Shown here piece by piece: positions 946 to 39,793 of a stretch of DNA of 64,000 bases. Every line of letters starts with the position of its first letter. Position 1 is the stretch's first letter. A program made the position numbers and the translations under genes. Source of the stretch: a virus (Duplodnaviria; Caudoviricetes); IMG/VR virus record IMGVR_UViG_3300031555_001542, positions 46,014 to 110,013 of that record; one strand, written 5' to 3'. The notes under the pieces were generated by a model. The model saw only the letters and a program-made list of their open reading frames with translations, had not been told where the DNA came from and did no database searches.

Positions 946-992
946 GTTATATAAAAAACAATTTTTAATTTAAGAAAGGAATGTATTTAATT

Positions 993-1499
993 ATGGCTCA
1001 GGATATGAATTTAAATGTAAGCCACATCGTGGCAGAATCCACTAACATCCTATCCACCAACTTTGGCGGCGGTCATATTTATAGCATCACTATTGATGAA
1101 GATATGGACAATGGCCTACTAGTTTGTAAGGATGAGTACATTGGTGATGAAACTTGGTCCGCTAAGGACTATGTTGCAGGTGAGGAACCCCTATTCCTAC
1201 TAGCTCCTCCTATCGTTGCTTTTACCCAGCTAAAGGGTTATGCAGACGAGGACAGATTCTACAACAAGCAGGGTGACAGAGTTCGTGCCTACACTCTAAG
1301 AGTTGGTGACAGAGTTTCTCTATCTGAGAACGCTTTTGACACTGCTCCTGTTGAGAAGCAGTATGTTACTTATGACGCTTCCGCTAAGCAGTATGTTGTT
1401 GCTGACGCTAAGACTGAGGGTCAGTTCTGCGCTCAGGTTCTAACCAAGATTGTTCGTAGCAATCTAATCATGTACAAGCTACAGGTTGTTAGCCTGTAA
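993..1499 (+). CDS. Capsid decoration/minor head protein
   Basis: Lies between scaffold and major capsid genes; strongly biased codon usage typical of high expression; AAAGGA RBS favours ATG 993. Confidence 0.6.
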   Translation: MAQDMNLNVSHIVAESTNILSTNFGGGHIYSITIDEDMDNGLLVCKDEYIGDETWSAKDYVAGEEPLFLLAPPIVAFTQLKGYADEDRFYNKQGDRVRAYTLRVGDRVSLSENAFDTAPVEKQYVTYDASAKQYVVADAKTEGQFCAQVLTKIVRSNLIMYKLQVVSL

Positions 1500-1525
1500 T
1501 TCTAGAGAAAAGGAGGATGAAAAAT

Positions 1526-2641
1526 ATGGCTAATCTAATGAATTTTGACGCACATGTTCGTGCTATTTTCGAAAATGACGAGACTAAGTTTGTTAACTTC
1601 AATAAGCTAATGGTTGATGCTTCCATCAATAATTATGAGGAAGGCATTGACGCTAAGACTGCTAATGAGAAGATTAGAAAGGTTTTCAGAGAGGCTATTG
1701 GTGTTTCTGAAAATGCTACTAAGCAGGAAATTCGTAAGGCTATTAAGAAGAGAGCTAATGCTCAGATTCTATTTGACCTAATTGAAGAGCTAGTTCCCAA
1801 CCTACTAAAGAGCGGCTGGGCAGAGAACCCATTCTTCAGAGAGTTCGTTGAAGAGAGATATCTAGATGAGGGCGATGAGAACATCTTCTATTCTGAGGAT
1901 AACTCCGTTCTAACTGTTTCTAAGGTTTCTGGCTCTCACTGGGATCTAGACCGTCAGAGACTAGGCAAGGGCTCCAGCTTCTCCATTGAGACTTCTGAAT
2001 ACGGCATTGCTGTTTACAGCGAGTACGAGAAGCTAATCTGTGGTCTAGAAGACTTTGCTACCTTTATCACCAAGATTTACGAGGCTATTGACAGATTCGT
2101 TAACGAGGCTATTTATCAGGCTCTAATGGATGCTGCAGAGAAGCTACCTGGCGGCGCTTCTGGTGCAGGTCAGTGGGTTAAGACTGGCGCTCTAGATGAG
2201 AACTCCAGAGGCACTCTAATTCAGCTAGTTGAGGATGTTCAGATGGCTACTGGTGCTAATGAGGTTATCATCATGGGTACTAAGTCTGCTCTAACTAAGG
2301 TTACTGGTCTACAGAATGTTGACTGGATCTCCAACGAGATGAAGAACGAGCGTCATACTACTGGCAGAATGGGCATTTGGGAAGGCATTAGACTTGTTGA
2401 AATCAAGCAGGGCTTTGCTCTAGGTGACACCACCAAGAAGCTAGTTGATGACAAGGTTCTATTCATCATGCCTGTTATGGACAACAAGTTCATCAAGCTA
2501 GTTAACCGTGGCGAGGATCAGCTAAGAGAAGTTCAGGACAAGACCCTAAATCAGGACATGACCTATGACTACAGATACATGTTCCAGATGGGTGTTGGTG
2601 TTCTAATCAACCTAATCTTTGGCGAGTGGATCCTAGCTTAA
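1526..2641 (+). CDS. Major capsid protein
   Basis: ~371 aa; position in the head module; extreme codon bias; RBS AAGGAGG; similar in character to SPbeta-like capsid proteins. Confidence 0.85.
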   Translation: MANLMNFDAHVRAIFENDETKFVNFNKLMVDASINNYEEGIDAKTANEKIRKVFREAIGVSENATKQEIRKAIKKRANAQILFDLIEELVPNLLKSGWAENPFFREFVEERYLDEGDENIFYSEDNSVLTVSKVSGSHWDLDRQRLGKGSSFSIETSEYGIAVYSEYEKLICGLEDFATFITKIYEAIDRFVNEAIYQALMDAAEKLPGGASGAGQWVKTGALDENSRGTLIQLVEDVQMATGANEVIIMGTKSALTKVTGLQNVDWISNEMKNERHTTGRMGIWEGIRLVEIKQGFALGDTTKKLVDDKVLFIMPVMDNKFIKLVNRGEDQLREVQDKTLNQDMTYDYRYMFQMGVGVLINLIFGEWILA

Positions 2642-2679
2642 TTGTATTAGAAACAAAGGAATAAAAGGAGAAAAAAGTT

Positions 2680-3213
2680 ATGGCAAAAAATACAGATATT
2701 AATGAAGTTGAAGAAGTTAAGGCTGAAACGAAGAAGGAAAAGGCGACTCAGAAGAGCGCTAGAAAATATGCTCCAACAGACAGAATTCCCTGTCGTAGCC
2801 TTACATATGGTGAGCTACTTTTAACTGGTCCCAAGACCAAGCTATTGCATACTTGGGCCAATTATGGTGATGTTACTGAAATGGAGTATCAGGATCTACA
2901 GGCTCTAAAGTCTACTAGATCTTCTTACCTATACAAGCCTAGATTTATCATTGAGGACGAGGAACTTGTTGAACAGTGGTCTGGTGATTTTAAGAAGATG
3001 TACGACGAAATTGTTGAAATGGACGTCGAGGCTCTTTTTAGACTACCAATTGGTCAGCTAAAGGCTAAGCTAAAGAAGGCTCCTGCGGGAGTTCAGTTAG
3101 CTGTTAAGAACATGGCTGGCGAAAAGATTATGAATGGTTCACTAGATAGTATCGCAAAGATTAAGGCGATTGATGAGGTTCTTGATACTCAGTTAATGCT
3201 ATATATTAAGTAA
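2680..3213 (+). CDS. Conserved head-module protein, unknown function
   Basis: RBS AAGGAG; follows the capsid gene; biased codon usage. Confidence 0.6.
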   Translation: MAKNTDINEVEEVKAETKKEKATQKSARKYAPTDRIPCRSLTYGELLLTGPKTKLLHTWANYGDVTEMEYQDLQALKSTRSSYLYKPRFIIEDEELVEQWSGDFKKMYDEIVEMDVEALFRLPIGQLKAKLKKAPAGVQLAVKNMAGEKIMNGSLDSIAKIKAIDEVLDTQLMLYIK

Positions 3214-3230
3214 TTTGGAGGTGAACCTAT

Positions 3231-3647
3231 ATGGGCACTCCATATGAAAAAGTATATGGTTATTTTCTAAATTCTACTACGGACTTTAATCTTGCGGATT
3301 TAGATGATCATACACTAAATGAAATGCTTAAAGGTTGGTTACATAGTGCAATTGTAAAGACACGCACAGCAAGTGATTTCACTCGTGATGATGATAACGA
3401 AGTTTTTAGCAATGAGTTGAGTGATTTAGATATTGAACTTCTTGCTATGGGTATGCGCCTAGCTTGGCTAGATCAGCGCATCAATTCCACAGAATATACA
3501 AATTTATTTGTTGGTGGAAAAGAAGAAAAGTTCTATTCACCATCTTCCCAGTTGTCTGAACTTCGTGCTCTCCGTGCAGATACACTCCGAGAGATGCAAC
3601 AACTTTACACATATAGCACATACAACAACAATTCTTTCTTTGACTAA
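3231..3647 (+). CDS. Head-tail connector/adaptor-like protein
   Basis: 138 aa, helical; neck-module position; RBS GGAGGTG. Confidence 0.55.
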   Translation: MGTPYEKVYGYFLNSTTDFNLADLDDHTLNEMLKGWLHSAIVKTRTASDFTRDDDNEVFSNELSDLDIELLAMGMRLAWLDQRINSTEYTNLFVGGKEEKFYSPSSQLSELRALRADTLREMQQLYTYSTYNNNSFFD

Positions 3648-3660
3648 GGAGGCGTTTCCG

Positions 3661-3966
3661 ATGAATATTTATAAAGAAACTACTCCTAGTCAAATTGCTG
3701 CAGAGAAGACATATATTCGCTCTGCAATTTTTAAGCTTCTGCCATATAAAGAAGAGTCTTACGAATATTTAAATGAATATTTTGGCTCAGTGCTACAACT
3801 ACTTCAAGGTTTCAATAAGGTTTCTGGCAACCAGCCGGAGATGGTCAGTATTATTAGTAAGATTGCATATGCACGTGATGTTGAAGATTTTAGTGAATAT
3901 CGTAAGGCTATTCTTGATGCCTGTGGGCTGGTAGAGCGAATCAAGGAGAGTGATCCTAATGCTTGA
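3661..3966 (+). CDS. Hypothetical neck-module protein
   Basis: AAGGAGG RBS before ATG 3661; the longer ORF-track start overlaps the upstream gene. Confidence 0.6.
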   Translation: MNIYKETTPSQIAAEKTYIRSAIFKLLPYKEESYEYLNEYFGSVLQLLQGFNKVSGNQPEMVSIISKIAYARDVEDFSEYRKAILDACGLVERIKESDPNA

Positions 3967-5044
3967 TTCATTTAGACTTCGCATGGCTGCGCTTGGTGGC
4001 TATGAAGGTGAAGCTAGGCGTAGGAATGCTCAAAATATTATGGATGCATCTTGGATGCGAGATCCAGCTACAAAACTCGTTTATGTTAAATGGGTTGATA
4101 GTGGTCTTCCTTTAATTGATGATGATGATATTCCAGTTTACGCTAAATATAACGTAAAGTCTTATCACAATATTACAGGAGATGCGGTTTCATATTTATT
4201 GCAATTTAGATTAGAAGATATAAGAGCCAATCCTAATATTAGGGTTGGTTCTTATGTTCAAATTATGAATGAAATGGATGAGCCTGAATGGTGGTTGATT
4301 GTTCATTATGACGATAGACTACAATTCAGACAATTTTCAATTTTGAAATGTACATGGACTTATAAATGGGTTTCTAGAGTTAGTGGCAAGCGTATTGTGT
4401 ATCAGTGTCTTGGTGCACCTCGTAAACAGAACTCTTACAACAGTGGTGTTTGGTTAGACTATGTAACTCAGACTGTTGAAAACCAGGAAGTTTTATGGCT
4501 ACCAACAAATAATGATACTAAAACTATTGTTTATGATACTAAATTTTTGAAGTCTTCAGAAGGTAGATATCCTCCTATTAAGTGGACAATCACTAAAATA
4601 GAAGATACTGCAATTGATGGAATTTCAAAATTTACTTTGGCGCAGGATTTCTTTGATCCAGCCAAGGATAATGTTGAATTGATGATAGCTAATTATTATG
4701 ATTCTTATGTTGAGCCAGAGGTTCCCGAACTTGAAGAAACTCCAACTGTAAATGCTTTAGATATTGTCTATTCTGGTTCTCCTGCTGTTCGTGCAGGCGG
4801 TGGATATAAAAAATTCACTCTTAAGGAACGTGTAAATGGAGAATTGGTTAATGTAACAGATGACGTTGAGTGGAGTATAGAGTTTCCTGATGGAGATCTA
4901 GAAAAGCTTGAATACTCTGTAAAAGATAATATATTTAAAGTAAAATGTTTGCCATTTTATGATTTAGTAGGTAAAACATTTACCATTATTGCGGAAAGTA
5001 AACATAGCTCAAAATCCCTGGTTGTGGAGGTGATTAGTCTATGA
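3959..5044 (+). CDS. Head closure-like protein with C-terminal Ig-like domain
   Basis: Neck position; beta-rich C-terminus (..DDVEWSIE..GKTFTIIAES..). Confidence 0.5.
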   Translation: MLDSFRLRMAALGGYEGEARRRNAQNIMDASWMRDPATKLVYVKWVDSGLPLIDDDDIPVYAKYNVKSYHNITGDAVSYLLQFRLEDIRANPNIRVGSYVQIMNEMDEPEWWLIVHYDDRLQFRQFSILKCTWTYKWVSRVSGKRIVYQCLGAPRKQNSYNSGVWLDYVTQTVENQEVLWLPTNNDTKTIVYDTKFLKSSEGRYPPIKWTITKIEDTAIDGISKFTLAQDFFDPAKDNVELMIANYYDSYVEPEVPELEETPTVNALDIVYSGSPAVRAGGGYKKFTLKERVNGELVNVTDDVEWSIEFPDGDLEKLEYSVKDNIFKVKCLPFYDLVGKTFTIIAESKHSSKSLVVEVISL

Positions 5045-5562
5045 TGCGAGATATTCAAAATATCGATGATGACATTAGCGGAATGAAGAGAAAGATTAAA
5101 CAAACGTTAATAGCCGACACGGACATTCTTGAAGTATTACATAATCCTGCTATTGATATTGATAGTCCAGATGAATTTCTGGATACTAACATCTTTGGAT
5201 TTATTAGAATTCCAAATACTCAAGACACTGTTCGAAATTTCATTTGTGTAACTGTTGATGACATTGAAGATCATAAGTTTAATGAAGTTATGAAAATTCA
5301 ACATATTACATTTACTGTTATATGTCATTTGAGTGATATAAAGACTGAATATGGTATTGATAGACATGACCTACTTGGTTATCTGATTAGAGATACTTTT
5401 AATTGGACAAATATGTTTGGTTTACAATATCATCTAGTCTACAACAAGGAGAGTACCATTGACGGTGATTATTATTGTAGAACACTAAAATTTGAGTCAA
5501 CAAAAACAAATGCGCTAAATAATGCAAGGATGGCGAATCCTCATGACAGGCTTAGACGTTGA
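5041..5562 (+). CDS. Tail terminator/neck protein
   Basis: Position before the tail tube gene; overlaps the upstream stop codon. Confidence 0.5.
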   Translation: MMRDIQNIDDDISGMKRKIKQTLIADTDILEVLHNPAIDIDSPDEFLDTNIFGFIRIPNTQDTVRNFICVTVDDIEDHKFNEVMKIQHITFTVICHLSDIKTEYGIDRHDLLGYLIRDTFNWTNMFGLQYHLVYNKESTIDGDYYCRTLKFESTKTNALNNARMANPHDRLRR

Positions 5563-6274
5563 TGATTTAAAACTTTATATTGGTGATGATTATGTCATCA
5601 ATGATAATATTAAAGTTTTACAACCAACTATAAGAAAAATAGCGGAATTTGGTGAGCGTGACTTTTTTTCTGTTGTTCATACAGTAACAGCCATACCGTC
5701 TGATATGAAGTCTCAGCTTTGGGACATGGGTCTTGACTGGATGGAAGTAGATGATTTTGAGTTATTTGTAATGCTTGCACAGACTTTAACTCCAGATAGA
5801 ACTAAGCTTTTATTTGGAGATTTAGATTTTTCAAAATTGAGACCATTTAATCACCCGCATATTGAGGGTGAAATCATTTTGGCAGATAAAGAATCTGGAA
5901 TTCTTATTGACAAGATGATATATCTAAAAATTGTATCCTATCTTCGCAAGGCATTTAATATTACGCCGAAGGTTGAAAAGGCGATGAATAAAATGACCAA
6001 GAAAATTTTAATTGAAGATGATAGGATGAAACTTAAACTTAATAAAGATAAGCCTTTTAAGTCTTTTTTGTTGCCACTTATTTCATCTGTTAAGGTTAAG
6101 CAAGGTTATACTAAAGAATATGTACTCAACATGGGGTATGTAGAATTTATGAATGATGTTGCTAGACTGCAGGTAATTCATAATGCAGACCATTTATTGA
6201 GTGGTGTGTATGCTGGCACTATTGATATGAAGAAAATTAATAAGGCTGAATTGAATTGGATGAAAGAGCTGTAA
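5543..6274 (+). CDS. Conserved tail-module protein, possible tail assembly chaperone
   Basis: Intact ORF immediately upstream of the major tail gene. Confidence 0.5.
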   Translation: MTGLDVDDLKLYIGDDYVINDNIKVLQPTIRKIAEFGERDFFSVVHTVTAIPSDMKSQLWDMGLDWMEVDDFELFVMLAQTLTPDRTKLLFGDLDFSKLRPFNHPHIEGEIILADKESGILIDKMIYLKIVSYLRKAFNITPKVEKAMNKMTKKILIEDDRMKLKLNKDKPFKSFLLPLISSVKVKQGYTKEYVLNMGYVEFMNDVARLQVIHNADHLLSGVYAGTIDMKKINKAELNWMKEL

Positions 6275-6325
6275 CAATTTGTTGCTCTTTTTATATTTAA
6301 AAATTATTTTATGGAGGAAATTATC

Positions 6326-7129
6326 ATGGCTGATAAAAAATTTGATATGAATAACTTTGTTATTGATAGAATTATCCGTGGCGTTGCTCTAAGCCAGAAG
6401 GATGATTCCGTTCTATTCTCTATTAACCAGATCCAGAATGCTTCTCTAAACTGTGCTTCTGAGTCTACTGATGCTGTTGACGCAATGGGTACTCCTATTG
6501 CTACTTTCTACAGAGCTAAGTCCGCAGAATTCTCTGCAGAAAACGCTCTATTCGACATGAACCTAATGGCTACCCAGCTAGGTACTGCTAAGAAGGTTGC
6601 TGACGATAAGAATAAGATTGTCATTCCTGCTATGGAGAGCTTTACTGTTACTGAGGGCAGAAAGCATGAGCTAAAGCACACTCCTGTTAAGGCTCCTAAG
6701 GAGATGTATGCTCTAAATGATGATAGCACTTTTGGCAAGCCCTATAGCCTAGGCACTGCTGCTTCCGCTGATGAGTTCTCTATTGCTGACAGAACTGTTT
6801 CTCTACCTACCGATGCAGAGCTAGTTGTTGGTACTGAAATGTTTGTTATGTACGAGTATGAGACTGACAAGGCTGTTGAAGTTGTCAACTCTGCAAAGAA
6901 CTTCCCTGTCGGCTGCAAGTTTGTTATGGAAGTCCTAGGCTGCGACGTTTGTGACCAGACCAACCTAGTTTACGCTTATGTTATCTTCAACAACGCTAAG
7001 CTAAGCCCCGACTTCGACTGGTCCATCGCTACTGATGGTACTCACCCCTTCTCTATGAAGGCTCAGCAGGATTACTGCGACAAGGAAAAGAGACTATTCT
7101 CCATCGTCATTCCTGGCGACGCTGAGTAA
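6326..7129 (+). CDS. Major tail (tube) protein
   Basis: ~267 aa, beta-rich; same extreme codon bias as the capsid gene; RBS GGAGG. Confidence 0.8.
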   Translation: MADKKFDMNNFVIDRIIRGVALSQKDDSVLFSINQIQNASLNCASESTDAVDAMGTPIATFYRAKSAEFSAENALFDMNLMATQLGTAKKVADDKNKIVIPAMESFTVTEGRKHELKHTPVKAPKEMYALNDDSTFGKPYSLGTAASADEFSIADRTVSLPTDAELVVGTEMFVMYEYETDKAVEVVNSAKNFPVGCKFVMEVLGCDVCDQTNLVYAYVIFNNAKLSPDFDWSIATDGTHPFSMKAQQDYCDKEKRLFSIVIPGDAE

Positions 7130-7205: not shown

Positions 7206-7239
7206 TATAATTATAATGCATGAAAGGAGCGTGAGCCCT

Positions 7240-7587
7240 ATGGCCCGTAAATCTAGAGAATGCTATCTATGTGGCACAGAATACCGCTATTGTGGCACCT
7301 GCGCAAATGATAGACTAAAACCCGCTTGGATGTCCGAGTTCCATAGCGAATCCTGCAAAAACATCTTTGACATTTGCACCCGATTTAATCTAGGCATGAT
7401 GTCCAAGATCGAGGCCCAGGATGCACTAAAATCCTGCGACCTATCCAATAAGGCAAATTTCAAATCCTATGTCATCCGTGACCTAGATGTAATCTTTGCC
7501 GAAGAACCCAAGAAGAAGACCAAGAAGGTCGAACCCGTGGCAATTGAGCCCGAATCACATGAAGTAGTTATTGAAAAAGAAAATTAA
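7240..7587 (+). CDS. Small zinc-binding protein (CxxC...CxxC)
   Basis: RECYLCGTEYRYCGTC..HSESC; RBS AAAGGAG before ATG 7240. Confidence 0.7.
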   Translation: MARKSRECYLCGTEYRYCGTCANDRLKPAWMSEFHSESCKNIFDICTRFNLGMMSKIEAQDALKSCDLSNKANFKSYVIRDLDVIFAEEPKKKTKKVEPVAIEPESHEVVIEKEN

Positions 7588-8865: not shown

Positions 8866-11478
8866 ATGGCAACAGAATATAAATTACCTTATACCGCACT
8901 TGATATAAATAGAAGACTAGGAAAAATTGACGAAATAGATTCATTAAAAGATCTTGTCGGAGCAGAACCCGTACAAAAACAAATTTCTGATGCGGTTAAA
9001 AATATCGGAGAAGCTATCAAAACGGATACAACTCTTAAAGTGCGTGGCAAAGCCGCAGATGCTAAAGCTGTTGGTGATGCAATTGCAAATTCCAAAGTAG
9101 AAATTGATAAAACTCTGAAAGTTAGTGGTAAGGCTGCGGATGCAAAAGTAACTGGTGATGAAATTACCAAATTAAATAACCTTGTTGGTGATACACCCGT
9201 TGCAGATCGAATTGCTACAGCCGTTGAAGAGTTAGCAGGGAACGTTTATACTCACCCTGACACCCACCCCGCTAGTATGATAACTGGATTATCTGGTGTC
9301 GCTACTAGTGGAGATTATAATGATTTAAGTAATTTGCCAGAACAGTATGTTCATCCTGAGAGTCATCCTGTAAGCATGATCACTGGTCTTGCTGACGTTG
9401 CCACAAGTGGCAATTACGAGGATTTAAGTAATAAACCAATTATTCCCGAAGAATATACACATCCAGAAACTCATCCTGTGGATATGATTACAGGTTTATC
9501 TGATATTGCAGTTTCTGGCGATTACGCAGATTTAAAGAATAAACCTACTATTCCAGATGAATATGTGCACCCATCTACTCACTCTGTAGATATGATTACT
9601 GGTCTTTCTGGTGTAGCTGTGAGCGGTGACTATAATGATTTGATTAATAAGCCAGACATTTCAGGTGAATATATTCACCCAGAAAGTCACCCTGCAAGCA
9701 TGATTACAGGACTTGCCAATGTTGCGGTTTCTGGTAATTATGAAGATTTGAGTAATAAACCCACTATCCCAACTCAATATATACATCCTGATAATCATCC
9801 AGCAAGTATGATTACTGGGTTGTCTGGTGTTGCGACTAGTGGTAGCTATAACGATTTGACGGATAAGCCGACAATTCCTAGTATTGATGGTTTGGCAACA
9901 GTAGCTTATGTAGATGAAAAGTTTGCTAATGTTGGGGAAAGCGGAGGAAGTGGAACATCTACTGGTCTACCTGAGTTCACCACCGAAGACGAAGGTAAAG
10001 TCCTGAGCATCAAAGACGGTACTCCCAGCTGGGAGAGTGTTAACGCCGGCTTCGGTAGTGTAAGCGAAGTTGATCTGTTCCCAGAGCGTGTAGCGGACGA
10101 TTTCCGTCCTTTAAGTTCCTATGGCGGATTGTATGGTACTGGTTATAATTTCCCCGAGAGCGGACTAACCAATGACCTTACCGACAGTTTCGAACTAGCA
10201 TTGGGCGAAATTTATTATGTTGAGTGGGATGGAGTCGAATACGAGGTTACCCCAAGCGATGCTAGCGCTGTACAGTCCGGTGCTTTGTTCCTTGGTAACG
10301 GAGCTCCTATGGGTCTGCCCGGTAATGGGGAACCGTTTGCGGTTGGATGGACTCATGCACAAGGAGTAACATTCATCAGCATCGATCAGCTTGAATCTCA
10401 CACCATCCGCATCTACCAGAAAGTCGAAACTACCTCCGCTATCAGCTGGAACGACCTCGCAGATAAGCCGTTTGGCGAAGAGAGAGGTCTTGTGGATCTC
10501 CTGCCCGAGACGACTTATAGCGAATTCTTTTTCGAAAACAATTATGGTGCGTACGTAGCTAACGAATCCGTTACCTATAAGCTGACTGTTGGCGAAACAT
10601 ATACCGTATTCTGGGACGGCCAGGAACATACCTGCATTGCACAAGACAGCAGTTCCTTAATGCCTAATACTGTGTGTATTGGTAATGCCTCAGCTTTTGG
10701 ATTGGCTGGTAACAACGAACCCTTCGTAATTGCATGGGAGACAACCGATGAATACGGAGATTTCGGTATGTATATCCCGCTGGTTAACGCTGGTGAGTCT
10801 ATTCCTCATACTATTCGTATTGCTCAAGAAGCCGATATTGTTAACCGGCTCGATAACAAATATCTGGATTTCATGAACGTCTATGAAGCGAAAGATATTA
10901 TGATAAATCCGAGGTTTCCATTCGATCTTGTCAGTGAAAATTACGAATCGTCGGGTAAGTCCTTATATATGGCCGAACTGATGGACACTTCTGAGTATGG
11001 GCATTTCGATAAGCTGACTCCTGGAGCTAAGTACGAGGTAATCATAAATGATAATGTGCAAATAGTTACCGCAAGTGAGATGGTTATCCCCGGAGTAGAA
11101 GGCGATTTCGTATTTTGCGGTAACAAGACTCTTGATAAACAAATTTTTGGAGACGACGCCGAGAATACATATGAAGATTTCTTGATTTGTGTTGTAAAGC
11201 AGGTAGTCGATGGTGCTCAGAGATGCGCCGCCGCCATATATATTACTACTACGGATACACATAGCGGAATAGGTGCTCCCGTTAGTATTAAACAGCTAGC
11301 ATGCAGTATCATCAAGAAGGAATATCTTCCTGATGATATCGGTGGAGGTAATGATTCCAATGTCGGTCCTGCTCTCCCCGAAGTCAGCACGTCCGACGCC
11401 GGTAAATTCCTGAGAGTCGGCGCCGATGGTAACTGGATTGTCGAAGCTCTACAGGACGTATCGGAGGTGGGCTTATGA
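8866..11478 (+). CDS. Tail fibre protein with His-rich shaft repeats and a higher-GC distal module
   Basis: GKAADAKAVGD motifs; six HPxxHP..SGxYxDL repeats; two related distal domains (..GE.Y.V.WDG..Y..G..N.EPF). Confidence 0.8.
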   Translation: MATEYKLPYTALDINRRLGKIDEIDSLKDLVGAEPVQKQISDAVKNIGEAIKTDTTLKVRGKAADAKAVGDAIANSKVEIDKTLKVSGKAADAKVTGDEITKLNNLVGDTPVADRIATAVEELAGNVYTHPDTHPASMITGLSGVATSGDYNDLSNLPEQYVHPESHPVSMITGLADVATSGNYEDLSNKPIIPEEYTHPETHPVDMITGLSDIAVSGDYADLKNKPTIPDEYVHPSTHSVDMITGLSGVAVSGDYNDLINKPDISGEYIHPESHPASMITGLANVAVSGNYEDLSNKPTIPTQYIHPDNHPASMITGLSGVATSGSYNDLTDKPTIPSIDGLATVAYVDEKFANVGESGGSGTSTGLPEFTTEDEGKVLSIKDGTPSWESVNAGFGSVSEVDLFPERVADDFRPLSSYGGLYGTGYNFPESGLTNDLTDSFELALGEIYYVEWDGVEYEVTPSDASAVQSGALFLGNGAPMGLPGNGEPFAVGWTHAQGVTFISIDQLESHTIRIYQKVETTSAISWNDLADKPFGEERGLVDLLPETTYSEFFFENNYGAYVANESVTYKLTVGETYTVFWDGQEHTCIAQDSSSLMPNTVCIGNASAFGLAGNNEPFVIAWETTDEYGDFGMYIPLVNAGESIPHTIRIAQEADIVNRLDNKYLDFMNVYEAKDIMINPRFPFDLVSENYESSGKSLYMAELMDTSEYGHFDKLTPGAKYEVIINDNVQIVTASEMVIPGVEGDFVFCGNKTLDKQIFGDDAENTYEDFLICVVKQVVDGAQRCAAAIYITTTDTHSGIGAPVSIKQLACSIIKKEYLPDDIGGGNDSNVGPALPEVSTSDAGKFLRVGADGNWIVEALQDVSEVGL
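9247..9882 (+). repeat. Six tandem ~36-codon repeats (YxHPxxHPxxMITGLxxVAxSGxYxDLxNKPxIP)
   Basis: Directly visible in both protein and DNA. Confidence 0.9.
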
Positions 11479-12843: not shown

Positions 12844-15840
12844 TTGATTACGGAAAACTTATCGACTTTAAAAATACACCAATTGACACAAAAACAGTAT
12901 AATAGAGAACTAGAATCTGGAACAATGGATAAAAATGCTTTGTATTTAACACCAGAAGAAGCAATTGATTTAAGTGGTTATGTTACTCTTGAACAGTTAA
13001 ATGAAAAAGCAGATGCTATTCATACACACGAGATTGTTCAACCGTATGACACTGTAAGTGGTGTAGAGACTGTTACGGTCGATCATGCATCTACGACCGA
13101 ACATGATTTAACCGTGGTGTTAAGTAGTGAAACGTATGCAAACTTTTCTGATATAACTGTAATTTTAACTAGTGGTGATGAAGAGCAAGTTATAGTTGCA
13201 AACACCAATGGCAATGTTATCGGATTACGTTCTAGACCAGATTTTACTTTGACTCTACGTTGTGATGCAGACGATTTTGATGCTTCCGAGATTACTATTA
13301 CATGTACTTATCAGATTGACTTAGAAAAGGTCTTACAAGATTATGTGTTAAATGTAGATCTTGACGGTGATTTTGGTGAAGATAGCGAATCCTCTAACGG
13401 TAGCTCCGTTATTATAGACCCTACATTATCTATTTCTCTGGCAGCTGCCGATGCTAAAGCGGTAGGCGTTGCAATTAGTGACTTGGACACCGAACTTAAT
13501 AATAAAATTGCAGCTGAGAGAAGTAGAATTAACAGTTTTGTTTCATTGGCTAACGGAAGTACTACTGGAGACGCAGAGCTTACTGATATCAGAGTATCTT
13601 ATGACGGCACTACTTATGATGCAGCAGGTGATGCTGTTCGTGCACTTGGCAATGAAATTACATATTTGCGTGGTAGTTTAAGAGACTATATTGATGCGAA
13701 AGCAATTGATGGTCTATTATATGAAAATAATAAGTTATATCTAACTTACAATGGTGAAATTGTATCTGACCCAGTTGAAATTGTTGGTGGCATCGGCGGT
13801 GGGGTTGGTGGCTCCAATAATAATGCTACCATTACTTTTACCAACACATCTGGTTGGATTTATAAAACTATTGCATCTGGTTCCTCTTGCCCTGTTGATT
13901 TTGAATGGAGCAGTTTAGAGGACTATATTGCTACTGGACCAGGCGTTATAAAGGTTATTGTTAATGGTATTCAAAAACATACTGCCGCTATTCAGCAAGG
14001 TAGTCACACATTAGATGTTTCTCCATGGCTAAGTTCTGGCGACAATACAGTTAAAATTAACATATCTGACATCTATGGCAATAGCCGTACAATTTCAGTA
14101 AGTGTTACATCTGTATTATTAACTATAGCATCTACATTTGATGCAAGTATTGCGTATACTGGAGATATTAGTTTTACATATACTCCTACTGGATCTGCAG
14201 AAAAAACTGTACACTTTGTTGTTGATGGAAAAGAAATTGGTATTGCAAAAATGACAGCCTCTGGCCGTCAACAACCATATACCATTCCTGCACAGACTCA
14301 TGGAAGTCATATTTTAGAAGTGTATTTTGACGCAGTTATTGCCGGTGAAACTGTTGAAAGTAATAAACTACGTTATGATCTAATATGTTTGGAGGATGGT
14401 AAAACCACGCCAATAATTACAAGTAGTTTTAATGCTGATACTGTTGAGCAATTTGATAGTGTTGTTATTGATTACTATGTATATACTCCAAATGCTTTAA
14501 CTTCACCAATTACATTAAAAGCAAATGGCGCAGAAGTGAAGCCTTTGACAGTTGATAGAACTAAACAAACATGGACTTATCGTGCGGATAATTCTGGTGA
14601 ACTTAAGCTTACTATTACATGTGGTGATGCTGTTAAGACTTTTGAACTAACAGTAAGTGAAAGTAGCATTAATGTTGAAGCAGAAACTAGTAGTTTAGCA
14701 CTACACCTATCTAGTTATGGTAGATCTAATAACGAAGATAATCCTGCTGTATGGCAGAGCGGTGATATTGCTGCAACCTTTACAGGATTTAATTTTAATT
14801 CTGATGGTTGGTTGAAAGATGGCGATGGTATTGCAGTACTTAGAGTAACTGGCGACGCAAGACTAACTATTCCTATGCAAATTTTTGCTACTGACTTCCG
14901 TACTACTGGTAAGACGATTGAGTTAGAATTCGCAACTAGAGATGTCCTAAATTACGACTCTGTTATTTTCTCATGTTTCTCTGGAAACCGTGGTCTGCAG
15001 ATTACTGCTCAAAAAGCATTCTTGAAATCTGAGCAGTCTGAAATTAGCACTCAGTATAAAGAAGATGAACACGTTCGTTTGGCATTTGTTGTGCAGAAGC
15101 GTGCGGAGCATCGTCTATTAATGGTTTATATTAATGGTATTTTGTCTGGTGTTATGCAATATCCTGATGATGATGATTTCTCTCAGATGGAACCCGTTGA
15201 TATTTCTATCGGTAGTAGCGATTGTACTATTGACCTATATAACATTCGTGTTTATAACAACAGCCTAACTCGTTTCCAGGTTCTTGAGAACTGGATTGCT
15301 GACACTCAGATTGCCTCCCAAAAGAAGGAAAGATGGCAACATAATAATGTATTTGACGAATATGGTCAAATTGTTATTTCTCAGCTACCAACAGATTTGC
15401 CCTATATGGTTATATCCGCTAAAACACTTCCTCAGTCCAAGGGCGATAAGAAAATTGTTAGCGGTTATTATGTTGATCCAGTAGATTCTAACAGAAGCTT
15501 TACTTTTGCTGGGGCAGAGGCGGATGTTCAAGGTACGTCTTCTGCTGGATATGCAAGAAAGAATTATAAAATTAAATTTAAGGGTGGCTTTGTACAAAAT
15601 GGAACAAACACGGAAACTTACAAGTTACGTGATGATTCCGTCCCGACTTCTGTATTTACATTCAAGGCAGACGTTGCATCTTCTGAAGGTGCAAATAACG
15701 TTGAACTAGTTAGATTGTACAATGATGCTTGCCCATATAAGACTCCACCACAGAAAGAAGATGGATATGTTCGTCAAGGAATCGATGGATATCCTATGAT
15801 TATTTTCCAAGATGATGGTACTGAAACTATATTTATCGGT
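12844..15840 (+). CDS. Exon 1 of giant adhesin/fibre protein A (Ig-like, LamG-like, N-lobe of CotH-like kinase)
   Basis: 999 codons ending ...ETIFIG; collinear with the paralog at 30804..36527. Confidence 0.85.
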
Positions 15841-24268: not shown

Positions 24269-25261
24269 ATGGCGGTTGTTAAAACGATTAAGACGGTTTT
24301 TCAATTTCGTAGAGGAACTACTGCAGAATGGGAACTAAATAAAGGTATTATTCCCGCTGCTGGTGAACCTTGTTTCGACTTGGATTTAAACACGTTAAGA
24401 ATCGGCAATGGCACTGATGCCTACGAAAACCTAGAACCTATTGGTGGCGTAAAATTTGAAATTGCTGCGGATGGCAAATCTATTGTCTTAGAGGACAATG
24501 TTCTAAAACTAGCTGGCTTTGATGCTGCAGAAGTTGGTGCGCAACCAAGAAAGAACGCAGATGGCAATATTGAGTGGATTGTTCCTTCTACTGAAACTGT
24601 TGATGAACTAAAGTCTACTGTTACAGAACTACAATCTAATGTTAGTGGTCTACAGACAGAGGTTTCTGGTCTAAAGGCGATTGTTGGTGCGGCTGATGAG
24701 GGCACTGGTACTTTGTTAGAAAGAATTGAGTCACTAGAAATCAAGATTGGTACTGGTGATGACACTATCGATGCAAAGATTGACGCCAAGATTAATGAAT
24801 TTGCTTCAAGAGTGACTGCTGATGGCACTATTAACACCATTCAGGAATTAATTACTTATGTTGCAGACCATGGAAGTGTAGTAACATCAATAGTTGACGA
24901 CATTACTGCACTAAAGGGTCTTGTTGGTGATACTAAAGTTTCTGATCAAATCAACAATGCTGTTGCAAGTAAAGTTAATGTAGAAACTGGCAAGTCTTTA
25001 ATTGCCGACACTCTAATTGCAAAATTAGAAGCAATTGAGGAAGGTGCCCAGGTCAATAAGATTGAAGTTATTAATCTTGGAAACACCACACTAGAGATTG
25101 TCGACAAGACGGTTACTATTCCGATTGGGGCAGGTCTAAAGTTCTCTGATGAAATCTCTGTGTCCGAAGATGGCACCGTTGGTATTGGAACTATTAGCTT
25201 TAGCAAGATTGCACAAGACGAAACTGAAATTATTGTTATGGACGGCGGTTCCGCTGTTTAA
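24269..25261 (+). CDS. Fibre protein with Mtd-N-like domain and coiled coil
   Basis: QFRRGTTAEW..GEP..LRIGNG; C-terminal MDGGSAV. Confidence 0.7.
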   Translation: MAVVKTIKTVFQFRRGTTAEWELNKGIIPAAGEPCFDLDLNTLRIGNGTDAYENLEPIGGVKFEIAADGKSIVLEDNVLKLAGFDAAEVGAQPRKNADGNIEWIVPSTETVDELKSTVTELQSNVSGLQTEVSGLKAIVGAADEGTGTLLERIESLEIKIGTGDDTIDAKIDAKINEFASRVTADGTINTIQELITYVADHGSVVTSIVDDITALKGLVGDTKVSDQINNAVASKVNVETGKSLIADTLIAKLEAIEEGAQVNKIEVINLGNTTLEIVDKTVTIPIGAGLKFSDEISVSEDGTVGIGTISFSKIAQDETEIIVMDGGSAV

Positions 25262-25315: not shown

Positions 25316-27382
25316 ATGGCTATTGAAAATGCAAAGACTCTAAATGTAAGAATTCGTAATAAGTATGACTCTTATGAAAATTGGGCTGCGTCTAGTTTAG
25401 TTCTAGAGGCAGGCGAAATTGCTATCGCATACACCACTGTTGATGTTAAGGTTGACAATGGTACAGCTCAGCATCCTGCCCTACTAATGAAGGTCGGTGA
25501 TGGCGAGAAAACTTTTGCAAACTTACCCTGGCTAAGCGCAAAGGCTGCAGATGTTGTTGCTGCATGTAAGTCTGAGGCTGCTCTAACTGCTTTCGTCAAT
25601 GCAGTTATTGCTGACGCTGGTATTGCTTCTGATGATGCTATGGAAGCACTAGCAGGTAGAGTTACTTCCGTTGAGAACGACCTAAATACTGCAACTACTG
25701 GCCTAAAGGCAAGAGTCACTACTGCTGAGGCTGCTATTGCTACTCTAAACGGTCTAGTTGGCGACACTAAGGTTGCTGATCAGATTACTAATGCCATTAA
25801 TGCTCTAAACCTAGCCGACACCTATGCTGCTAAGGTTCACAAGCACGAGATTGCTGATGTTAACGGTCTAAGCGATAGCATTGCTGCAGCTAAGAAAGCT
25901 GGCGATGATGCTGCTTCTGCTCTAGCTACTTACAAGACAACTAATGACGCCGCTGTTAAGGTTAACTCTGATGCAATCACTGCAATTAAGGACGGCGCTA
26001 CTATCGACAGCTTTGCTGATGTTGAAGCTGCTCTAGCTGGTAAGCAGGGTACTGGCGATTACTCTGTGAATGGTCACAAGCACGAGATTGCTGACGTAAA
26101 TGGCCTATCTGACGCCATCGCTGATGCAAAGAAGGCTGGCACCGATGCTGCTGCTGCTGCTGGACAGGCTCTAATTGACGCCAAGGCTTATGCTGATGGA
26201 CTAGTAGGCGATAAGACTGTTGGTGTTCAGATTACTGAGGCACTAGCTAATTATACCACTACTGATAGCATGAACTCTGCTATCGCTACCGCTAAGGGTG
26301 AGGCTATTTCTCATGCTGATGGTCTAAATACCGCTATGGATGCTCGTGTTAAGGTCGTTGAGGGCAAGGCACACACTCACACCTTCGTTGAGTCTGAGCT
26401 AAACCTAATTAAGACTGGCGACGTTGCTAAGTGGAATGCTGCTGAGCAGAACGCTAAGGATTATGCTGATGATCTAGATGAGGCTATGGATGTACGTATG
26501 CAGGCTGTTGAGGCTAAGCTTGGTGCTGGTGAAGGCGGTGTTGATGCTCAGATCAATGCTGCCGTTGCTGCCGAGGCTAAGCTACGTGACGATGCTGACA
26601 AGGCTCTACAGGCTCTAATTGAGGCTAATGATGCTGAGATTCTAGCTCTACAGGGTCTAGTTGGTGATGAGAATGTTGCTACTGCTATTGAGAATGCTGT
26701 TAAGGCTGAGAAAGAAAGAGCTATGGGTGTCGAAGGCGGTCTAGAGACTAGACTAGCTGCTGTTGAGGCAAACTATGCAACTGATGCAGATGTTGAGGGT
26801 TTACAGACTCAGATCAACACTATTATGAACAATCCTGATGCTGAGGGCGCTATTAACTCTATCAATGAGTTCACTCAGTATGTTAAGGACCATGGTACTA
26901 TTGCCGATGGTATGAGAACCGACATCAACAAGAATAAGGAAGATGTTGCTGGTCTAATCACTCGTATGGGCGCTGCCGAGACTGCTATTGGCACTAAGGC
27001 TGAACAGGCTGATCTAACTGCTCTAGCTGGTCGTGTTACTACTGTTGAAGGCGACCTAAACATTGAGACCACTGGTCTAAAGGCTAGAATGACTGCTGCT
27101 GAGGCTGACATTGATGCTCTAGAAACCAAGGTTGGTGACAAGACTGTTGCTGCTCAGATTGAAGCCGCCATTGAGGCTCTAAAGATTGGCGATTATGCCA
27201 AGGCTGCTGATCTAACTGCTGCTATCAATCAGCACAATACTGACAAGGCTGCTCTAGAAGCTGATATTGCTAAGAAGGCTAATGATGCTGATCTAGCTGC
27301 AATTGCTAAGTCTGGTTCTACTGACGATCTAGTTCAGGGTGCTATGACCCTAGTCTTTGACTGTGGCGGTGCATCCGTCTAA
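25316..27382 (+). CDS. Abundant Ala-rich coiled-coil fibre protein with Mtd-N-like domain
   Basis: KVGDG...FA.LPW; internal repeats (HKHEIADVNGLSD x2, RVT.VE.DLN..TTGLKAR x2); capsid-like codon bias. Confidence 0.75.
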   Translation: MAIENAKTLNVRIRNKYDSYENWAASSLVLEAGEIAIAYTTVDVKVDNGTAQHPALLMKVGDGEKTFANLPWLSAKAADVVAACKSEAALTAFVNAVIADAGIASDDAMEALAGRVTSVENDLNTATTGLKARVTTAEAAIATLNGLVGDTKVADQITNAINALNLADTYAAKVHKHEIADVNGLSDSIAAAKKAGDDAASALATYKTTNDAAVKVNSDAITAIKDGATIDSFADVEAALAGKQGTGDYSVNGHKHEIADVNGLSDAIADAKKAGTDAAAAAGQALIDAKAYADGLVGDKTVGVQITEALANYTTTDSMNSAIATAKGEAISHADGLNTAMDARVKVVEGKAHTHTFVESELNLIKTGDVAKWNAAEQNAKDYADDLDEAMDVRMQAVEAKLGAGEGGVDAQINAAVAAEAKLRDDADKALQALIEANDAEILALQGLVGDENVATAIENAVKAEKERAMGVEGGLETRLAAVEANYATDADVEGLQTQINTIMNNPDAEGAINSINEFTQYVKDHGTIADGMRTDINKNKEDVAGLITRMGAAETAIGTKAEQADLTALAGRVTTVEGDLNIETTGLKARMTAAEADIDALETKVGDKTVAAQIEAAIEALKIGDYAKAADLTAAINQHNTDKAALEADIAKKANDADLAAIAKSGSTDDLVQGAMTLVFDCGGASV

Positions 27383-37166: not shown

Positions 37167-38648
37167 ATGGCTTTAATTGGAAATTCAAATGAACAAAAAA
37201 TGTGGAACTATTTAAAATCAAAAGGTTTAAATGATTGTGGTGCGGCAGGTCTACTTGGAAATATACAGGCTGAATCTGCGCTAAAACAGAATAACCTTGA
37301 AAACATTGGAAACACAAGACTTGGTATGACTGATGAGCAATATGTTTCTGCTGTAGATAATGGTGGATATACAAACTTTGTCAACGATGCTTTTGGTTTC
37401 GGAATTTGCCAATGGACATACCATACTAGAAAGAGAGCTCTCTATGAATATGCGAAATCTAAAAACAAATCTATTGGTGACTTAGAGATGCAACTTGACT
37501 TCTTGTATAAAGAATTAAGTGAAAGTTATCCATCTGTATTAAAAACATTAAAAAATGCAACATCTGTCAAAGAAGCATCTAATGCAGTTTTGCTGCAATT
37601 TGAACGTCCAGCAGATCAAAGTGTTGCTGTGCAAAATAAACGTGCATCTTATGGACAAACTTATTACGACAAATATGCAGGTCAAGTTTCAGATGTGAGT
37701 CCAGCTACCTATTCTATTTTTAATATGAGAACGACAAAACCAGAGGCTGGTAATAAGTATTATATAACCAAAGCAAACGGTGGATGGTCTGACGCTATTA
37801 AAGGAAGTCCAACAGATGCAAATTGTGATGTGTTGCCAAACTGTGTTGGTTATGCTTATGGTCGCTTTAATGAAATTGGTGGATATGGATATTGTAAGCA
37901 TCTTCGTCCTGTAAATGCGGAAAATTTTATGCAATATAAAGGCTCTCTAGAAGTGGGACAAACTCCCAAGGTGGGTGCCTGTATGGTCTGGCAAAAGGGT
38001 AATACTCTTTCCAATTCTGACGGCGCTGGTCATGTTGCTATTGTGGAAAAGGTGGTCAGCTCTACGCAAATTATAACTTCTGAAAGTGCTTATGGTGGTC
38101 CAGCATTCTATACACAAACACGTAATAAGGGCACTGGAAATTGGGGTATGGGAAGCGCTTATGCATTTCTTGGCTTTATCTACAACCCCGCAGTAAACGG
38201 CTCTACAACTGTTAGCAGTAATGTTACTACCAATTCTTCTGGAGAAGAAGTCTATATTGTTAAAATCCATGACACTTTGTCCGCTATTGCTGCAAAGTAT
38301 GGGACTACATATCAGGCACTTGCTAAATATAACAACATCTCTAATCCAAATAGAATTAGTGTTGGTCAGCAGATTAAGATTCCTGGCAAAAATGTTAGCA
38401 CCAATACAAACGCTAATGTAAGCAATAAATCTTGGACTCCAAAAGTTGGAGACGTTGTTATGTATAACGGCAATAAACATTATGTCAATGCAAATGCAGC
38501 TGTTGGCTCTGCTTGTAAAAGCGGAAAAGCAAAAATTACAAGCACCTATCAAGTTGGTAAGTCAAAGCATCCATACCATTTAGTTGGTGTTTCTGGAGGA
38601 TCTACTGTTTATGGTTGGGTTGATGAAGGGAGTTTTACTAAGATATGA
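37167..38648 (+). CDS. Endolysin: phage-tail-lysozyme-like, CHAP, LysM and SH3-like domains
   Basis: AGLLGNIQAES/GICQWT/FERPA; LPNCVGYAYGR and GHVAIVE (CHAP Cys/His); YIVK..DTLSAIA..NRISVGQQIKIP (LysM); GWV. Confidence 0.9.
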   Translation: MALIGNSNEQKMWNYLKSKGLNDCGAAGLLGNIQAESALKQNNLENIGNTRLGMTDEQYVSAVDNGGYTNFVNDAFGFGICQWTYHTRKRALYEYAKSKNKSIGDLEMQLDFLYKELSESYPSVLKTLKNATSVKEASNAVLLQFERPADQSVAVQNKRASYGQTYYDKYAGQVSDVSPATYSIFNMRTTKPEAGNKYYITKANGGWSDAIKGSPTDANCDVLPNCVGYAYGRFNEIGGYGYCKHLRPVNAENFMQYKGSLEVGQTPKVGACMVWQKGNTLSNSDGAGHVAIVEKVVSSTQIITSESAYGGPAFYTQTRNKGTGNWGMGSAYAFLGFIYNPAVNGSTTVSSNVTTNSSGEEVYIVKIHDTLSAIAAKYGTTYQALAKYNNISNPNRISVGQQIKIPGKNVSTNTNANVSNKSWTPKVGDVVMYNGNKHYVNANAAVGSACKSGKAKITSTYQVGKSKHPYHLVGVSGGSTVYGWVDEGSFTKI

Positions 38649-38989: not shown

Positions 38990-39034
38990 TAAAATGAGCA
39001 AACAAGTGACAATGATTTTATGAGGTATAAATAT

Positions 39035-39793
39035 ATGAGCAAAAAGAATATATGCGATTTAAAAGAAAAAAGTGATTTTATATGCTTTATGGAAGATGCA
39101 ATAGACGGTTTGCTACGTATGGTCTCTTGGATATTATTAATATCTATCGTTATCATCGGTATGTATGAGACTCCAAATATATCTACATGGGATGATATTA
39201 CTGATAATTATACATGTGTAATAAATAATTTTTATATCAATGAAGACTCTAGTGTTGATGATGCGAAGATGCTAAATGAATTTGTTGAAAGTCTACCATC
39301 AGTTTTTATAAGGGAATTCAGAAAAAACTGGAGGGTAATTATCGAAGACTATATTCCTACTCCCATTAATTATCCTAATAATGTCATAATTGGTGGGTAT
39401 ACCGATTGGAACTCTAGAATCATTCTTGTTAGAAAACAAACAAGTTCTACTGATACACTCGATACTTTTATTCATGAACTCGGTCATTGTTTTGATTTCG
39501 AATATGGTTCAGTAAGTTATAGCGAATTATTTGGCAACATATATGATTTATATAAAGATGATTTTAGTGAACAATATACAAACTCACCTGTTGGATATTC
39601 TACATCATCTACGGCAGAATTTTTTGCTACATGTTTTAAAGAATACATATTATGTCCAGAGCATTTAAAAACAGTTGCTCCAAAAGCATATAATTTCGTT
39701 GATTATTTCTATAAAGATATACAAAAAATAAAGTATATATACATATACGATTTAGGAGCCGTTGCTAATATAATGTCAAGATTTGCTGAATAA
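39035..39793 (+). CDS. Membrane-anchored zincin metallopeptidase (anthrax lethal factor-like fold)
   Basis: N-terminal TM; GGYT; FIHELGHCFD (HExxH); AEFFA. Confidence 0.75.
   Translation: MSKKNICDLKEKSDFICFMEDAIDGLLRMVSWILLISIVIIGMYETPNISTWDDITDNYTCVINNFYINEDSSVDDAKMLNEFVESLPSVFIREFRKNWRVIIEDYIPTPINYPNNVIIGGYTDWNSRIILVRKQTSSTDTLDTFIHELGHCFDFEYGSVSYSELFGNIYDLYKDDFSEQYTNSPVGYSTSSTAEFFATCFKEYILCPEHLKTVAPKAYNFVDYFYKDIQKIKYIYIYDLGAVANIMSRFAE

Follow-up and report, generated by a model that had tools for sequence, protein, structure and literature searches.

Translational selection is known to draw phage structural genes towards the codons preferred by their hosts (Lucks et al. 2008, PMC2266997), and phages are known to carry tRNAs that offset anticodon-nuclease defences (van den Berg et al. 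2023, PMC10264068). Here we describe virion genes of an uncultured gut phage in which leucine is written almost exclusively as CTA. These genes lie in a stretch of 64,000 nucleotides of the IMG/VR record IMGVR_UViG_3300031555_001542 (hereafter the window), which forms the final part of one phage contig of 110,013 bp (G000, GC 37.7%; labels with G or L denote the compared genomes and loci). The public sequencing runs that contain the sequence are of animal gut and faecal origin. Structural genes of phages would be expected to follow the codon preferences of the host; here the codons of one amino acid have been almost fully rewritten between capsids that are 83-85% identical in protein, and the codon now used is one that plausible hosts avoid. 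No paper on the use of CTA (CUA) in phage late genes was found in our literature searches.

Like the selection described by Lucks et al. (2008), the bias in G000 sits in high-copy structural genes and acts in frame, and the codon profile resembles a plausible host type for 17 of 18 amino acids. Unlike it, the chosen leucine codon is nearly unused in the EF-Tu and EF-G genes of the best-matching bacteria, and the biased non-virion genes of the G000 lineage choose other leucine codons. For phage T4, Cowe and Sharp in 1991 and Kunisawa in 1992 are said to have described codon-usage classes by expression time, complemented by the T4 tRNAs. Gene classes of one phage also differ in synonymous codons in the G000 lineage, but the difference is nearly limited to one amino acid and almost absolute, and no cognate phage tRNA was found. 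In T-even infection, a host tRNA-Leu is cleaved. A tRNA supply altered in infection would likewise explain a class-dependent codon optimum in the G000 lineage, and in relatives of G000 the tRNA clusters are flanked by RNA ligase and Ro60-like genes, although such genes occur in relatives with CTT- or CTG-rich capsid genes as well and not in CTA users alone. Unlike in the tRNA-cleavage systems, the domain scans of G000 found no nuclease, and the codons replaced are mainly CTT and CTC.

A further parallel comes from Escherichia coli, whose rarest leucine codon is CTA. In the cultured E. coli phage Sharanji (OR545507), the capsid gene gp356 uses CTA for 24 of 30 leucines and never CTG, followed by gp357 (21/37) and gp359 (14/18). 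Its capsid and neighbouring head genes thus have CTA at 57-80% of leucines without any CTG, similar to G000, and its other codons are host-like, with those for Arg, Lys, Ala and Val matching the highly expressed genes of E. coli. Seven tRNAs are listed for Sharanji, none of them for leucine (PMC11895373). Hence, no phage tRNA is needed for abundant phage proteins to acquire CTA, even where this runs counter to the optimum of the host. Sharanji differs from G000 in being an unrelated jumbo myovirus of a Gram-negative host, and its polB shows no CTG enrichment.

Leucine codons of the virion genes

Five genes of the window were pooled as the late set (Table 1). CTA encodes 106 of their 114 leucines (93%) and CTG only one. 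In low-bias or low-copy genes of the same strand and block, CTA makes up 16% of leucine codons; at this rate, the probability of at least 29 CTA among the 30 leucines of the capsid gene is 2e-22, and the late set differs from the low-bias genes with a Fisher p of 4e-64. A first-pass annotation of the window had counted by hand the leucine codons of the capsid gene, the major tail gene and a small gene (termed gene 7240), and had called the fibre gene at 25316 overwhelmingly CTA. Our recount agrees with all of these values.

Table 1. Genes of the window and of the adjoining contig, with their leucine codons or domain matches. Positions are those of the window, except for genome C1, which denotes contig positions outside it.
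Feature	Position	Strand	Late set	Leucine codons	Other evidence
Head-module gene immediately preceding the capsid gene	981-1499	+	yes	CTA 12/15	phrog_4147; weak match to a virion structural protein family
Major capsid protein gene	1517-2641	+	yes	CTA 29/30, CTT 1, CTG 0	tblastn relatives annotated as major capsid protein
Head-module gene, intermediate bias	2680-3213	+		CTA 10/19	
Probable major tail protein gene	6311-7129	+	yes	CTA 15/15	phrog_2729 (virion structural protein); role inferred from position
Small late gene, no assigned function	7216-7587	+	yes	CTA 6/6	
Tail-associated gene, intermediate bias	24269-25261	+		CTA 13/24	
Fibre-like protein gene	25316-27382	+	yes	CTA 44/48	N-terminal part weakly matches tail fibres
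Tail lysozyme, CHAP and LysM protein gene	37167-38648	+			domain matches
Large serine recombinase gene, broken off by the contig end	62487-63998	-			Pfam Recombinase and Zn ribbon
Two-barrel RNA polymerase gene, YonO/RdRP type, just upstream of the window	genome C1 34090-36891				

The CTA bias declines with expected copy number inside one co-oriented block and is strongest in high-copy structural genes. CTA accounts for 80-100% of leucines in the capsid, tail, fibre and head genes, for 40-54% in three further virion genes, and for 3-31% in low-copy genes such as those for the portal, the terminase and the tape measure. As the first-pass annotation had stated, the late set otherwise prefers AAG (90%), CAG (100%), GAG (61%) and TTC (58%); the preferences claimed for AAC and GGC were not borne out, as AAC reaches 45% and GGC ties with GGT. 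The other A-ending four-fold codons are rare in the same genes (GCA 17%, GTA 6%, CCA 4%, ACA 3%, GGA 2% and TCA 1%). Since every one of them is shunned, leucine is the lone exception.

Derived and leucine-specific recoding

The closest capsid genes (L004 and G001, 98-99% amino acid identity to the window) use CTA for 29-30 of 30 leucines. At 85% identity, the capsid gene of G002 already has 23 CTT and 2 CTA, and at 83% identity those of L007, L008 and L009 have 19-22 CTT and no CTA. When the window was aligned with L008, 27 of the 28 shared leucine codons differed, CTA standing in place of 19 CTT, 5 CTC, 2 CTG and 1 TTA, while the codons for Lys, Gln, Arg, Ala and Thr were mostly unchanged. 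Because outgroup capsid genes (22-48% identity) are also CTT users, CTA is the new state. A systematic replacement of CTG by CTA, as anticipated in the first-pass annotation, is not supported by this alignment, in which CTT and CTC make up 24 of the 27 replaced codons. CTA is also dominant in the capsid genes of G008 (29/30) and G006 (18/27), whose proteins are 63-64% identical to that of the window, and again in the 40% identical capsid of L060 (15/25). Thus the habit arose more than once or moved by recombination. It is settled that the CTA recoding of leucine in these virion genes is derived, recent, leucine-specific and nearly complete.

The selected unit is the codon. In the late set, a single CTG stands in frame against 151 out of frame, for which synonymous shuffles predict 139; CTT and CTC behave alike, and CAG, the complement of CTG, is the sole glutamine codon. 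Avoidance of a nucleotide motif such as a restriction or RNase site was therefore rejected. A mutational or strand skew was rejected as well, because the same genes favour T-ending and shun A-ending codons in all other four-fold boxes. The earlier view of the bias as a codon-level, translation-related recoding of high-copy late genes is upheld.

Leucine codons differ between gene classes

The gene classes compared here are presumed to reflect late or earlier expression. On the minus-strand arm of G000, outside the window, genes are strongly biased too (AAG 84%, CAG 92%), with CTG for 53% and CTA for 2% of leucines; CTG is found once in the late set and 88 times in biased non-virion genes. In G001, CTA encodes 94 of 111 leucines in late genes (CTG 4) and 40 of 175 in biased non-virion genes (CTG 61). 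The corresponding values for G006 are 75/126 (CTG 3) and 62/251 (CTG 53). Orthologous core genes show the split as well: RNA ligase and Ro60-like genes are CTG-rich in G001 and CTT/CTG-rich in G006, both with CTA-type capsid genes. In G002 they are CTT-type, as is the capsid gene, and in G896 the RNA ligase gene, the only one of the two concerned, is CTG-type with a CTG-type capsid gene. The CTA habit is overlaid specifically on high-copy virion genes, with partial enrichment elsewhere, and the CTG and CTT of biased non-virion genes fit a decoding regime that differs between gene classes.

The CTG-rich minus-arm genes of G000 have no homologues in G001, G006 and G002, but they do in other large phages including G896, which is CTG-type throughout, with CTG 25/26 in its capsid-like gene. 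As these genes are missing from the nearest relatives, mosaic origin explains the contrast between gene classes for G000 alone. Gene content was also compared between CTA-type and CTT-type phages as a possible cause and dismissed, since it gave no tRNA-related candidate, and RNA ligase, Ro60-like and PARP-like genes are common to all types. No tRNA nuclease turned up when 46 proteins of G000 were scanned with Pfam and PHROGs.

Possible causes of the recoding

We favour, at a probability of roughly 0.45, the reading that leucine-tRNA supply in late, high-output translation differs from the host's normal optimum, because biased non-virion genes favour CTG and CTT and because an E. coli phage does likewise against its host's optimum. 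The highest-copy virion genes would be under strong translational selection for reading via CUA, that is, by tRNA-Leu(UAG), which would be supplied by the cell and not, as far as the data go, by the phage. Ancestral CTT and CTC were replaced almost fully, while the remaining codon profile stayed like that of CTT-using Clostridia. If gene class reflects the time or output of expression, the isoacceptors reading CUU, CUC and CUG may become less usable than tRNA-Leu(UAG) in late, very high-output translation, and the late genes would be tuned to the latter. A change of leucine-tRNA supply in infection would represent an undescribed layer of phage-host conflict. The pattern bears in addition on codon-based host prediction and on the expression of phage proteins.

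The first-pass annotation had proposed a codon-specific takeover of translation following the loss of tRNA-Leu(CAG). The recoding of high-copy late genes and the class-dependent leucine codons agree with it; the proposed destruction of tRNA-Leu(CAG) is not supported by the domain scans, which found no nuclease, and would need amending, since the replaced codons are mostly CTT and CTC. A bolder form of the idea, which we consider doubtful, extends to several phage-host pairs that are unrelated to one another, among them E. coli and its Asteriusvirus phages. Infection would make the main CUN-reading tRNA-Leu of the host unusable, through either an anticodon nuclease of the host or a factor of the phage, and the most abundant late proteins would be recoded onto the spared minor tRNA-Leu(UAG). 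If true, translation would have an escape route that is general and specific to leucine.

Ordinary host adaptation is the strongest rival, although we judge it somewhat unlikely. The host would have tRNA-Leu(UAG) as its dominant CUN reader, for instance after losing tRNA-Leu(GAG), and the most expressed phage genes would have adapted first. Distant capsid relatives do follow their known hosts, PBC2 with TTA 23/29 in B. cereus and phiL47 with CTT/TTG in L. lactis. Related phages fall into CTT, CTG and CTA types, and the sampled bacteria vary likewise. No prophage closely related by capsid was found in 185,579 species genomes, which held only relatives of 40-50% identity, and bacteria were therefore sampled as surrogate hosts. 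The late set was compared with the EF-Tu and EF-G codon use of 14 Clostridia, the best of which served as the surrogate host. For amino acids other than leucine, the best match was G293 (r 0.85), followed by G395 of the same family (0.79). Measured against the best-matching profile, the total-variation distance of the late set is 0.92 for leucine and no higher than 0.40 for any of the remaining amino acids. EF-Tu and EF-G of G293 and G395 use CTT and CTC, with a single CTA in about 120 leucine codons together. Late genes hence resemble EF-Tu and EF-G of some sampled Clostridia for all amino acids except leucine.

Samples of genomes were also screened for CTA-CTA at a conserved leucine pair of EF-Tu, with a motif control. 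It was found in 0/401 and 0/301 genomes of the two orders with the closest profiles, those of G293 and G345, and in 4/401 genomes of a phylum-wide sample. All four have an A-ending profile (r 0.15-0.50). In three of them (G040, G056 and G178), CTA is the most used leucine codon of tuf, and GTA, GCA, ACA, CCA and GGA are preferred. Thus CTA-preferring Clostridia exist, but none sampled has the profile of the phage; among about 1,100 sampled genomes, CTA combined with its T/C-ending profile was not found. The surrogate comparison and the screens weaken the case for ordinary host matching. Two further points speak against it: non-virion genes with 90-100% AAG or CAG in the same phages prefer CTG or CTT, and the CTA use of Sharanji arose against a known host optimum.

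Several points count against a changed leucine-tRNA supply, and some of them favour host adaptation. A host with unusually abundant tRNA-Leu(UAG) would also give a preference for CTA. On the capsid tree, the CTA-type capsid genes have a patchy distribution, and they turn up together in metagenomes (G001 with G008, L004 with G006), which is the pattern expected from a shared host. The phages that carry tRNA-Leu(UAG) are non-CTA users and those that use CTA lack it (see below), which fits hosts differing in that tRNA. CTA reaches 23-25% in non-virion genes of CTA-type phages compared with 0-10% in their CTT-type and CTG-type orthologues from G002 and G896, as a gradual host-driven shift would give. 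The CTG-rich genes of G000 itself are a mobile module that lacks homologues in the nearest relatives. The scans of G000 proteins identified no nuclease, tRNA-modifying enzyme or other effector, and only 14 genomes were available from which to choose the best surrogate host profile.

A mosaic history with no present cause is improbable. The virion module would have gained its CTA habit in another host and lately recombined with modules of other habits. High identity between G000 and G001 is confined to the head block and the recombinase, and homologues of the CTG-rich minus-arm genes occur in other phage types alone, as such a history would have it. A CTA share of 93-100%, though, needs continuing selection, given that capsid genes with 85% protein identity already differ at about 45% of their synonymous sites. 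The habit is also seen again in G006 and G008, capsid lineages of no more than 63-64% identity.

A phage-encoded tRNA-Leu(UAG) had been suggested in the first-pass annotation as the decoder. ARAGORN (also with relaxed settings) and Rfam found no tRNA gene in the 110-kb contig, which ends inside the recombinase gene. Because this gene is broken and no terminal repeat is present on the contig, the G000 genome is incomplete, with about 60 kb missing. Complete relatives span 170-175 kb and have tRNA clusters in the region matching the missing part, so a cluster may lie there. That a tRNA-Leu(UAG) from this segment supplies late translation is nevertheless a long shot. This tRNA is carried by the complete genomes of G002 (CTT-type) and G896 (CTG-type), neither of which uses CTA in its capsid gene. 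The complete CTA-type genome G006 has tRNA-Leu with UAA and CAA only and none with UAG by ARAGORN and Rfam. Of the partial CTA-type genomes, G001 has 20 tRNAs with the leucine anticodons UAA and CAA but not UAG, and G008 has 7 tRNAs, none for leucine. Use of CTA is therefore not accompanied by a phage tRNA-Leu(UAG); if anything, the two are inversely related.

Reassignment of CTA to another amino acid, which has nothing in its favour beyond the oddness of the bias, was rejected: the G000 contig has no tRNA of altered identity, and the CTA positions conserved with relatives all align with leucine codons (CTT, CTC, CTG or TTA), confirming that CTA still means leucine.

Other features of the contig and its relatives

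The capsid protein of G000 is 27-30% identical to capsids of large siphoviruses of Bacillus, Lactococcus and Brevibacillus. The lysozyme-CHAP-LysM protein points to a Gram-positive host. The recombinase, whose homologue in G001 has 646 aa and is 96% identical to the G000 copy, and the YonO/RdRP-type polymerase suggest an SPbeta-like temperate phage of about 170 kb. Among the tail genes, the plus-strand gene at 39020-39793 of the window encodes a 257-aa protein matching the anthrax lethal factor N/C-terminal domain family (ATLF, E 2e-8) and peptidase M90, and its product looks like a zinc metallopeptidase-like module.

On the plus strand of G000, outside the window, long antisense open reading frames (ORFs) rich in CTT, CTC and CTG (genome C1 8587-10206, 12302-12901 and 16322-17122) lie opposite minus-strand genes. 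These shadow ORFs exist because the real genes are strongly biased towards AAG, GAG and CAG; a naive ORF caller chooses the wrong strand there.

The phage G896 is complete (163.7 kb) and comes from the same metagenome as G001 and G008. Its capsid-like gene is located at L251:268-1374 on the minus strand (G896:C1:40268-41374). The phage encodes tRNA-Leu with UAG, UAA and CAA anticodons and has a 697-aa phrog_1735 gene in common with the minus arm of G000.

In the CTA-type contig L060 (G013:C10), only the capsid gene and a tail-like gene (ORFs 9971-11014 and 14846-15631) switch to CTA, AAG, CAG and GCT, and the neighbouring genes all use TTA, AAA and CAA. G013 was considered as the host of L060 and rejected, since the contig is phage at both ends and linked to G013 by binning only; the tuf gene of G013, of the TTA/AAA/CAA type, mismatches the L060 phage too. 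A Family XIII prophage (L059) was set aside because its bias is too weak to use.

Unusual tRNA-like genes were observed in two CTA-type relatives. G001 has a 92-nt long-arm gene (L049:2894-2985, minus strand) whose discriminator is G73 and whose anticodon loop has six bases, GCAGUA; the Rfam tRNA model missed this gene. In G006 (L194:16967-17451 and L194:19887-19996), several such genes are interrupted by inserts some 16-50 nt long, an ACAGCAA motif is common to at least three of the inserts, and one gene is a long-arm tRNA with A73 and a possible CUA anticodon. These genes adjoin a Ro60-like (DUF2828/DUF7788) gene, with an RNA ligase gene about 10 kb downstream, and may be Y-RNA-like partners or intron-bearing tRNAs. 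As UAG decoders, the genes of both phages were rejected, because they have no counterpart in G000 and no clear UAG anticodon. In G004 (L052:2264-12007; capsid protein 46% identical, about 30% GC), we found five copies of tRNA-Glu(CUC), a tmRNA and a tRNA with anticodon UUA reading the TAA stop codon, a set that hints at stop-codon recoding in this phage.

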